Positions 9,882-10,204 of a stretch of DNA of 64,000 nucleotides are shown here, in pieces (within the stretch, counting starts at the first letter, position 1; the number at the start of each line of letters is the position of its first letter). A program made the position numbers and the translations under genes. This DNA is from Escherichia phage WPEC2, in sequence record PV691511.1; one strand, 5' to 3'. The notes under the pieces are model-generated. The model was not told the origin of the DNA and searched no databases. It saw nothing but the letters and a program-made list of their open reading frames with translations.

Positions 9882-10204
9882 TTACCAGACATGTTGAGAA
9901 ATAATAGTTTCCGTTTTAATGTTATATTTTTCAAGTAGCTCTGCATAGGCTTCTTTTGCATTCTCATTTACTTGCTCAAGATCTACAGCTACGCTTCCTT
10001 CTCCGCCTTCTAAATAAATACCATATATGCAATAAGACTCATCAGCATCGTAGAAAGGAGAGATGCGACTTAAGTCAAGACCTTCTTGTAAGAACCAGTT
10101 AAAATGTCAAATTCTTCTTCAATTCTAGGGTCTTCTCCTACAGCCTCTTCCCATTTATTAAAAGGTGCACCCTGTAACATACGCCATTCGATATCAATAC
10201 CCAT
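9882..10204 (-). other. split small ORF: 45-codon ATG ORF with RBS runs into a start-less 73-codon ORF in the -1 frame
   Basis: frame A MGIDIEWRMLQG... stops at about 10069; frame B ...GIYLEGGEGSVAVDLEQV... open to 9882 with no ATG/GTG/TTG. Confidence 0.3.

Follow-up and report, generated by a model that had tools for sequence, protein, structure and literature searches.

Introduction

Phages of the subfamily Stephanstirmvirinae encode a conserved hypothetical protein of 108 amino acids, represented by gp165 of phAPEC8 (YP_007348472), gp069 of phi92 and the family PHROG 15453, which carries no known function. We analysed a 64,000-nucleotide stretch of Escherichia phage WPEC2 (PV691511.1), hereafter the window, that contains this gene at the same locus as in phAPEC8, flanked by the small genes that follow nrdB and by the sugar-nucleotide genes, with a nucleotide identity to family members of 92-99%. 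Unlike in the family, the reading frame in the window is broken by a gap of 4 nucleotides, and no relative that we examined shows such a break.

The resulting arrangement, with an upstream ORF overlapped by a −1 ORF that has no start codon, bears a superficial likeness to the programmed −1 frameshifting sites of dnaX (A AAA AAG) and of the phage tail chaperone G/GT. However, the slippery heptamer and the stimulatory structure are both absent here, and the arrangement is not conserved. Another parallel is the debris left by ultra-deep short-read assembly of phage genomes, that is, de Bruijn bubbles and contigs concatenated as a 'complete genome', which we find in the records of the sibling phages WPEC1, WPEC4 and WPEC6; unlike these, the window has blunt joins only and is free of repeated fragments. 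Most likely, the apparent split is not a real feature, and the locus is an ordinary gene of 108 codons in a single ORF. The case matters mainly as quality control: the record is unfit as evidence for recoding or gene loss in Phapecoctavirus.

Layout of the split gene

The genes around the split are all on the minus strand. The features of the locus, in window coordinates, are as follows.

9882-10204, minus strand: disrupted copy of the 108-aa phage gene, 323 nt here versus 327 nt in relatives
10070-10204, minus strand: ORF1, native residues 1-33, then 11 residues read out of frame (ILTGSYKKVLT), then a stop
9882-10106, minus strand: ORF2, a frame without a start codon, native residues F36-W108 and the stop codon
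10105-10106: junction of the 4-nt gap, GGAG on the gene strand and CTCC on the plus strand
10212-10220, minus strand: Shine-Dalgarno-like GAGGAGGAG, 7 nt 5' of the ORF1 ATG
9306-9872, minus strand: rmlC, dTDP-4-dehydrorhamnose 3,5-epimerase, intact, 188 aa (ORF call and annotation of relatives)

ORF1 runs from an ATG at 10204-10202 to a TAA at 10072-10070 and has 44 sense codons; the 45-codon ATG ORF with a strong ribosome-binding site described in an earlier note on this DNA is thus present, its length and its end each being off by one (one codon and one nucleotide, respectively). The ribosome-binding site GAGGAGGAG is the same in the aligned relatives. ORF2 lies in the −1 frame relative to ORF1 and is open from 10106, just after a TGA at 10109-10107, to a TAA at 9884-9882, with 74 sense codons, of which 73 encode native sequence. 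No ATG, GTG or TTG in this frame gives a product of at least 30 amino acids, in agreement with the earlier description of a 73-codon, −1-frame ORF that reaches 9882 without a start codon, and rmlC (9872-9306) follows directly downstream, again as described. The split layout is genuine in the sequence and is not a chance pairing of ORFs, given that both halves match one conserved 108-aa family end to end.

The gene in related phages

By megablast, the window belongs to the genus Phapecoctavirus (Stephanstirmvirinae, phAPEC8-like), with best regional matches of 97-99% identity. The annotations of iGC_PHA_EC001, ZCKP1, phAPEC8 and ESCO37 give one CDS at the locus, 327 nt long and encoding 108 amino acids, and alignment of the window with these four genomes showed a single consequential difference, namely, the absence of GGAG between positions 10106 and 10105. 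The relatives read GAC GGA GAT TTT AAC (D33 G34 D35 F36 N37), and the window reads GAC ATT TTA AC. Because GGAG is missing, ORF1 encodes native residues 1-33 and then runs out of frame, and the native sequence from F36 to W108 falls to ORF2.

The family as a whole is uniform in this respect. When the two halves were fused and used as a tblastn query, 132 records matched, 129 of them with a single uninterrupted match of 324 nt. Homologues with identities as low as 34% (99-111 aa) likewise cover both halves in one protein. The D-G-D motif at the site is present in all 15 members listed of a close cluster of 123, including phi92 gp069; 14 of the 15 are 108 aa long, and the remaining one is an N-terminally shorter form of 100 aa that still covers the site. 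Compared with the profile phrog_15453, for which one uninterrupted ORF of about 100-111 codons would be expected, the gene in the window comprises 323 nt divided between two frames; when GGAG is put back, the match extends over positions 1-108 of the 108 in the profile (E 1.9e-72). A Pfam search with the restored protein gave no match. Alignment with related phages, which had been proposed as a check, accordingly yields one uninterrupted ORF in all relatives, an outcome that the earlier note had counted towards refutation. Of the options raised there (non-canonical recoding, pseudogene or sequencing indel), recoding is therefore unsupported, whereas the indel-or-pseudogene branch is upheld.

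We also searched for the deleted junction elsewhere. An 81-nt query across it matched 109 phage records: the three sibling phages WPEC1, WPEC4 and WPEC6, and 106 others, all of which span 85 nt and so carry the 4 nt. In IMG/VR and metagenome contigs, searched with a pattern that allowed 0-8 bases between the flanks, the four contigs found all had the 4-nt GGAG spacer and no other. The deleted junction, GAC followed directly by ATTTT, was found nowhere in the phage collection, IMG/VR or metagenome contigs searched; the corresponding sequence GACATTTT is absent from the whole of WPEC1 and from the parts of WPEC4 and WPEC6 that were examined, and a search of public records for the exact 44-aa product of ORF1 showed no gene that encodes it.

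The AlphaFold model of the cluster representative (pLDDT 93.6, pTM 0.84) is one compact alpha/beta domain, in which the beta-sheet combines a strand from the ORF1 part (residues 5-14) with strands from the ORF2 part (47-49, 61-69 and 100-107), and G34-D35 lies in a loop between two helices. A fold search against the PDB gave no significant match, the best (E 0.07, TM ~0.3) being vaguely ferredoxin-like. In a Logan assembly (ERR15003728), a related 136.7-kb contig (L018 2001-2216) encodes an in-frame fusion of 71 aa, P0003, which consists of the N-terminus of the upstream gp164-like gene and the last 35 residues of the split-gene homologue, most of the gene being deleted. Judged from this sequence, the deletion suggests that the 108-aa gene may be dispensable.

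The window as a mosaic of mis-ordered contigs

Comparison with ESCO37, taken as a clean reference, shows that the order of the window is not that of its relative. Positions 1-3110 correspond to ESCO37 75..1 and 149194..145353, reversed; 3112-3259 to 142172-142319; 3260-33270 to 27613-57621; 33268-49945 to 111669-127827; and 49937-64000 to 57622-71685. Thus, the first 3.1 kb are inverted and derive from the far end of ESCO37, and a 16.7-kb block (ESCO37 111669-127827) sits between sequences that are adjacent in ESCO37. Among the joins between these blocks (3108-3112, 3259/3260, 33270/33271 and 49937-49945), the one at 33270/33271 is spanned by none of 66 related records and the one at about 49943 by none of 64, siblings included. 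Two of the joins, at about 3110 and at about 49940, damage genes by cutting or fusing them. At 2914-3126 (minus strand), the homologue of ESCO37_00264 breaks off at about 3110, and at 49621-50139 (minus strand), the homologue of ESCO37_00022 continues across about 49940 into unrelated sequence, producing a chimeric ORF.

Of the ESCO37 ORFs, 139 have a match in the window, and the 108-codon gene is the sole one among them that is truly split in two inside a block; the other indels relative to ESCO37 are outside annotated CDSs, in frame or within a divergent stretch. No repeats of at least 40 nt occur in the window, which implies that the record is not a naive concatenation of overlapping graph neighbours.

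Sibling records and the four variable bases

WPEC1, WPEC4 and WPEC6 share their laboratory of origin and their host strain (EC3.18), and their records measure 155-161 kb compared with a normal size of about 150 kb. We found no publication on WPEC phages in the literature. The three records are labelled 'complete genome' and consist of concatenated assembly-graph pieces, with dozens of tiny spurious CDSs and an excess length of 5-11 kb. The window is 100% identical to them over long blocks, and WPEC1 (PV659873) begins at the same base as the window. Blocks of WPEC1 tile the window, with breaks at window positions 3108, 3260, 10105/10106, 19368/19388, 22205/22212, 32281/32283, 33270/33271, 46661/46663, 49943-49945, 59374/59376 and 62900/62953, so that all joins of the window match WPEC1 contig ends. 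The gap is one of these breaks: one WPEC1 contig (C) corresponds to window 10105..3260 and another (D) to window 10106..19368, their gap-side ends are exact, and in WPEC1 each of them abuts unrelated sequence there.

Between its long blocks, WPEC1 contains fragments of 75-81 nt and of 153-159 nt, in tandem or inverted; pieces of these sizes also occur in WPEC4 and WPEC6, and the breakpoints at which they lie are fixed. A k-mer size of 77 is a default of SPAdes, and these lengths are as expected for edges of k+1 and of about 2k (2k±1) in a k=77 de Bruijn graph, from which we infer the assembler itself; the 78-nt fragments would be expected to represent single k+1-mers between adjacent branch points. 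Among the fragments of about 153 nt, all eight versions of the tetranucleotide RRAR (GGAG, GGAA, GAAG, GAAA, AGAG, AGAA, AAAG and AAAA) are present in WPEC1, once each (for example, L005 11305-11457 and 12834-12986), with identical flanks, and subsets of these alleles are found in WPEC4 and WPEC6. The alleles would turn G34 into G, E, R or K and D35 into D or N, whereas natural relatives are invariant at the tetranucleotide (GGAG, encoding G-D). This invariance, read from sequence comparison, argues against the variation being a general biological property of the site.

Several sources of the RRAR variation were considered and set aside. A diversity-generating retroelement was rejected because the changes are G/A only, adjacent A's do not change and the variation is confined to 4 nt, and a natural mix of strains because the 75-nt flanks are identical and G34-D35 is present in 15 of 15 listed natural relatives. 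Escape from restriction or from CRISPR targeting through the PAM or seed fits poorly, since there are only transitions and the wild-type allele is retained; for CRISPR, moreover, the optimal PAM is retained and the seed positions are unchanged. Adapter chimeras were rejected because both flanks are on the same fragments.

The variant fragments other than RRAR follow a different pattern. Almost all of them show T>G (A>C when read from the opposite strand) within T-A-A or T-A-G triplets, whereas RRAR varies between G and A at three of its four positions. Such alternative fragments of WPEC1 show T>G on the plus strand at window positions 19365, 19387, 22206, 22211, 32282, 46662, 62900 and 62952, and on the minus strand at 59375 and 59378. 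At all T>G sites, the window has the same allele as ESCO37, except at 46662, where ESCO37 has no aligned base. The triplets are not the stops of genes, and a role as real stop codons was rejected; the T>G variants are probably a systematic base-calling error that becomes visible at very deep coverage, although a mutational signature is conceivable as well.

Origin of the four-nucleotide gap

We consider it probable that the gap arose when two contigs were joined end to end across an assembly tangle, with the variable tetranucleotide dropping out; in that case, the 108-codon gene would be intact in the phage itself. Under this mechanism, the tetranucleotide between GAATTTGAC and ATTTTAAC would be multi-allelic (RRAR) in the reads from which this group of records was assembled, a de Bruijn assembler would stop the left contig at GAC and begin the right contig at ATTTT, and abutting the two contigs in building the record would remove the four variable bases and shift the frame. 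The joining step, presumably carried out by a tool or manually, might have been, for instance, reference-guided ordering or the stripping of scaffold Ns. From WPEC1, we infer contig ends at 10105/10106 in the assembly of the window as well, and the RRAR fragments in the sibling records similarly suggest that the raw reads of the phage would carry 4 nt at the site. End-to-end placement of the contig ending in GAC and the contig starting with ATTTT reproduces the sequence of the window exactly. The boundaries of the gap coincide with contig ends in the sibling WPEC1 assembly, and other joins in the same record are unsupported by related genomes. Hence, the earlier suggestion of a sequencing indel holds insofar as 4 nt are missing, but the evidence favours a contig-join artefact at an assembly bubble over a simple base-calling indel.

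Some observations do not sit easily with a contig join. The variant sites at 19.4, 22.2, 32.3, 46.7, 59.4 and 62.9 kb, which break WPEC1, are assembled through correctly in the window; hence, the pipeline did not simply abut every contig of the WPEC1 type. Some guidance, for example, by a reference or read pairs, is needed to order and orient contigs C and D correctly, and a path through the graph across the site would require real reads that lack the 4 nt.

There is some room for a real 4-bp deletion allele, in which case some or most genomes in the lysate would have lost GGAG and the accessory gene would be knocked out as a pseudogene, possibly through the same process that varies the four bases in the sibling lysates. 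Such a deletion would remove exactly the four variable bases, in a gene that seems dispensable in view of the P0003 fusion in the related 136.7-kb contig, and elsewhere in the 30-kb block, the assembly passes cleanly through the other variant sites. We nevertheless regard it as unlikely, considering that GACATTTT did not appear in WPEC1, the examined parts of WPEC4 and WPEC6 or any other public genome or contig searched, that the boundaries of the gap match contig ends to the base, and that the record contains demonstrable false joins.

It is more doubtful still that the tetranucleotide is truly hypervariable in the lysates, with all eight RRAR versions occurring at G34-D35 and the window representing a precise 4-nt deletion. 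If this were true, it would point to site-specific G/C-to-A/T hypermutation, or damage and repair, affecting a single surface loop in a conserved accessory protein, with the host strain EC3.18 perhaps being the driver. The biological thread in the data is this occurrence of every G/A combination at one tetranucleotide in three lysates, against the invariance of natural relatives.

Programmed −1 ribosomal frameshifting, or another form of recoding that fuses ORF1 and ORF2 into one protein, has a negligible probability. ORF1, in the 0 frame, does overlap with ORF2 in the −1 frame, and ORF2 lacks a start codon; however, the overlap, C ATT TTA ACT GGT TCT TAC AAG AAG GTC TTG ACT TAA, contains no X XXY YYZ in the zero frame, a reading that bears out the earlier statement that a canonical slippery heptamer is lacking, and after slippage at the nearest heptamer, U UUA ACU, the tRNA in the A site would be unpaired. 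A stimulatory hairpin or pseudoknot 5-9 nt downstream was not found: the 91 nt that follow (10100-10010, minus strand) fold with −12.2 kcal/mol compared with a mean of −15 for shuffled sequences (z +0.92). The two-frame layout was seen in no homologue (129 phage records, 4 environmental contigs, the 15 listed cluster members and distant homologues), and a frameshifted product would still be without the conserved G34-D35. With neither a heptamer, nor a downstream structure, nor conservation, programmed frameshifting is unsupported. Fission into two separate functional small proteins is just as implausible because, although ORF1 retains its ribosome-binding site and start codon, ORF2 has neither, and the mixing of ORF1 and ORF2 strands in the modelled sheet suggests that neither half should fold alone.

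Beyond this locus, the mis-joins and assembly debris in the records of the window, WPEC1, WPEC4 and WPEC6 will give rise to spurious ORFs and false rearrangements in later comparisons.

Neighbouring genes

The sugar-nucleotide cassette downstream of the split gene (window 8470-9872, minus strand; compared with phAPEC8, L002 1837-3324) differs within the genus. In the window, ZCKP1, iGC_PHA_EC001 and ESCO37, it consists of rmlC and a dTDP-4-dehydrorhamnose reductase gene, and in phAPEC8 and many others, of genes for a 330-aa epimerase/dehydratase and a glucose-1-phosphate thymidylyltransferase. Nucleotide homology to the phAPEC8 group ends right after the stop codon of the split gene, with a megablast coverage of 62%.

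Two genes upstream of the split, at 10348-10494 (minus strand), the window encodes a 48-aa protein with two CxxC pairs (CPVCGGTG ... CLNCHGEG) and weak, sub-threshold matches to the DnaJ CXXCXGXG zinc-finger domain and to Anti-TRAP, by which features it is a putative small zinc-ribbon protein. The gene for this protein differs from that of ESCO37 by 6 nt in frame at window position 10368, where CCAACC is absent; because this absence is common to iGC_PHA_EC001 and ZCKP1, it represents natural variation and not an artefact.
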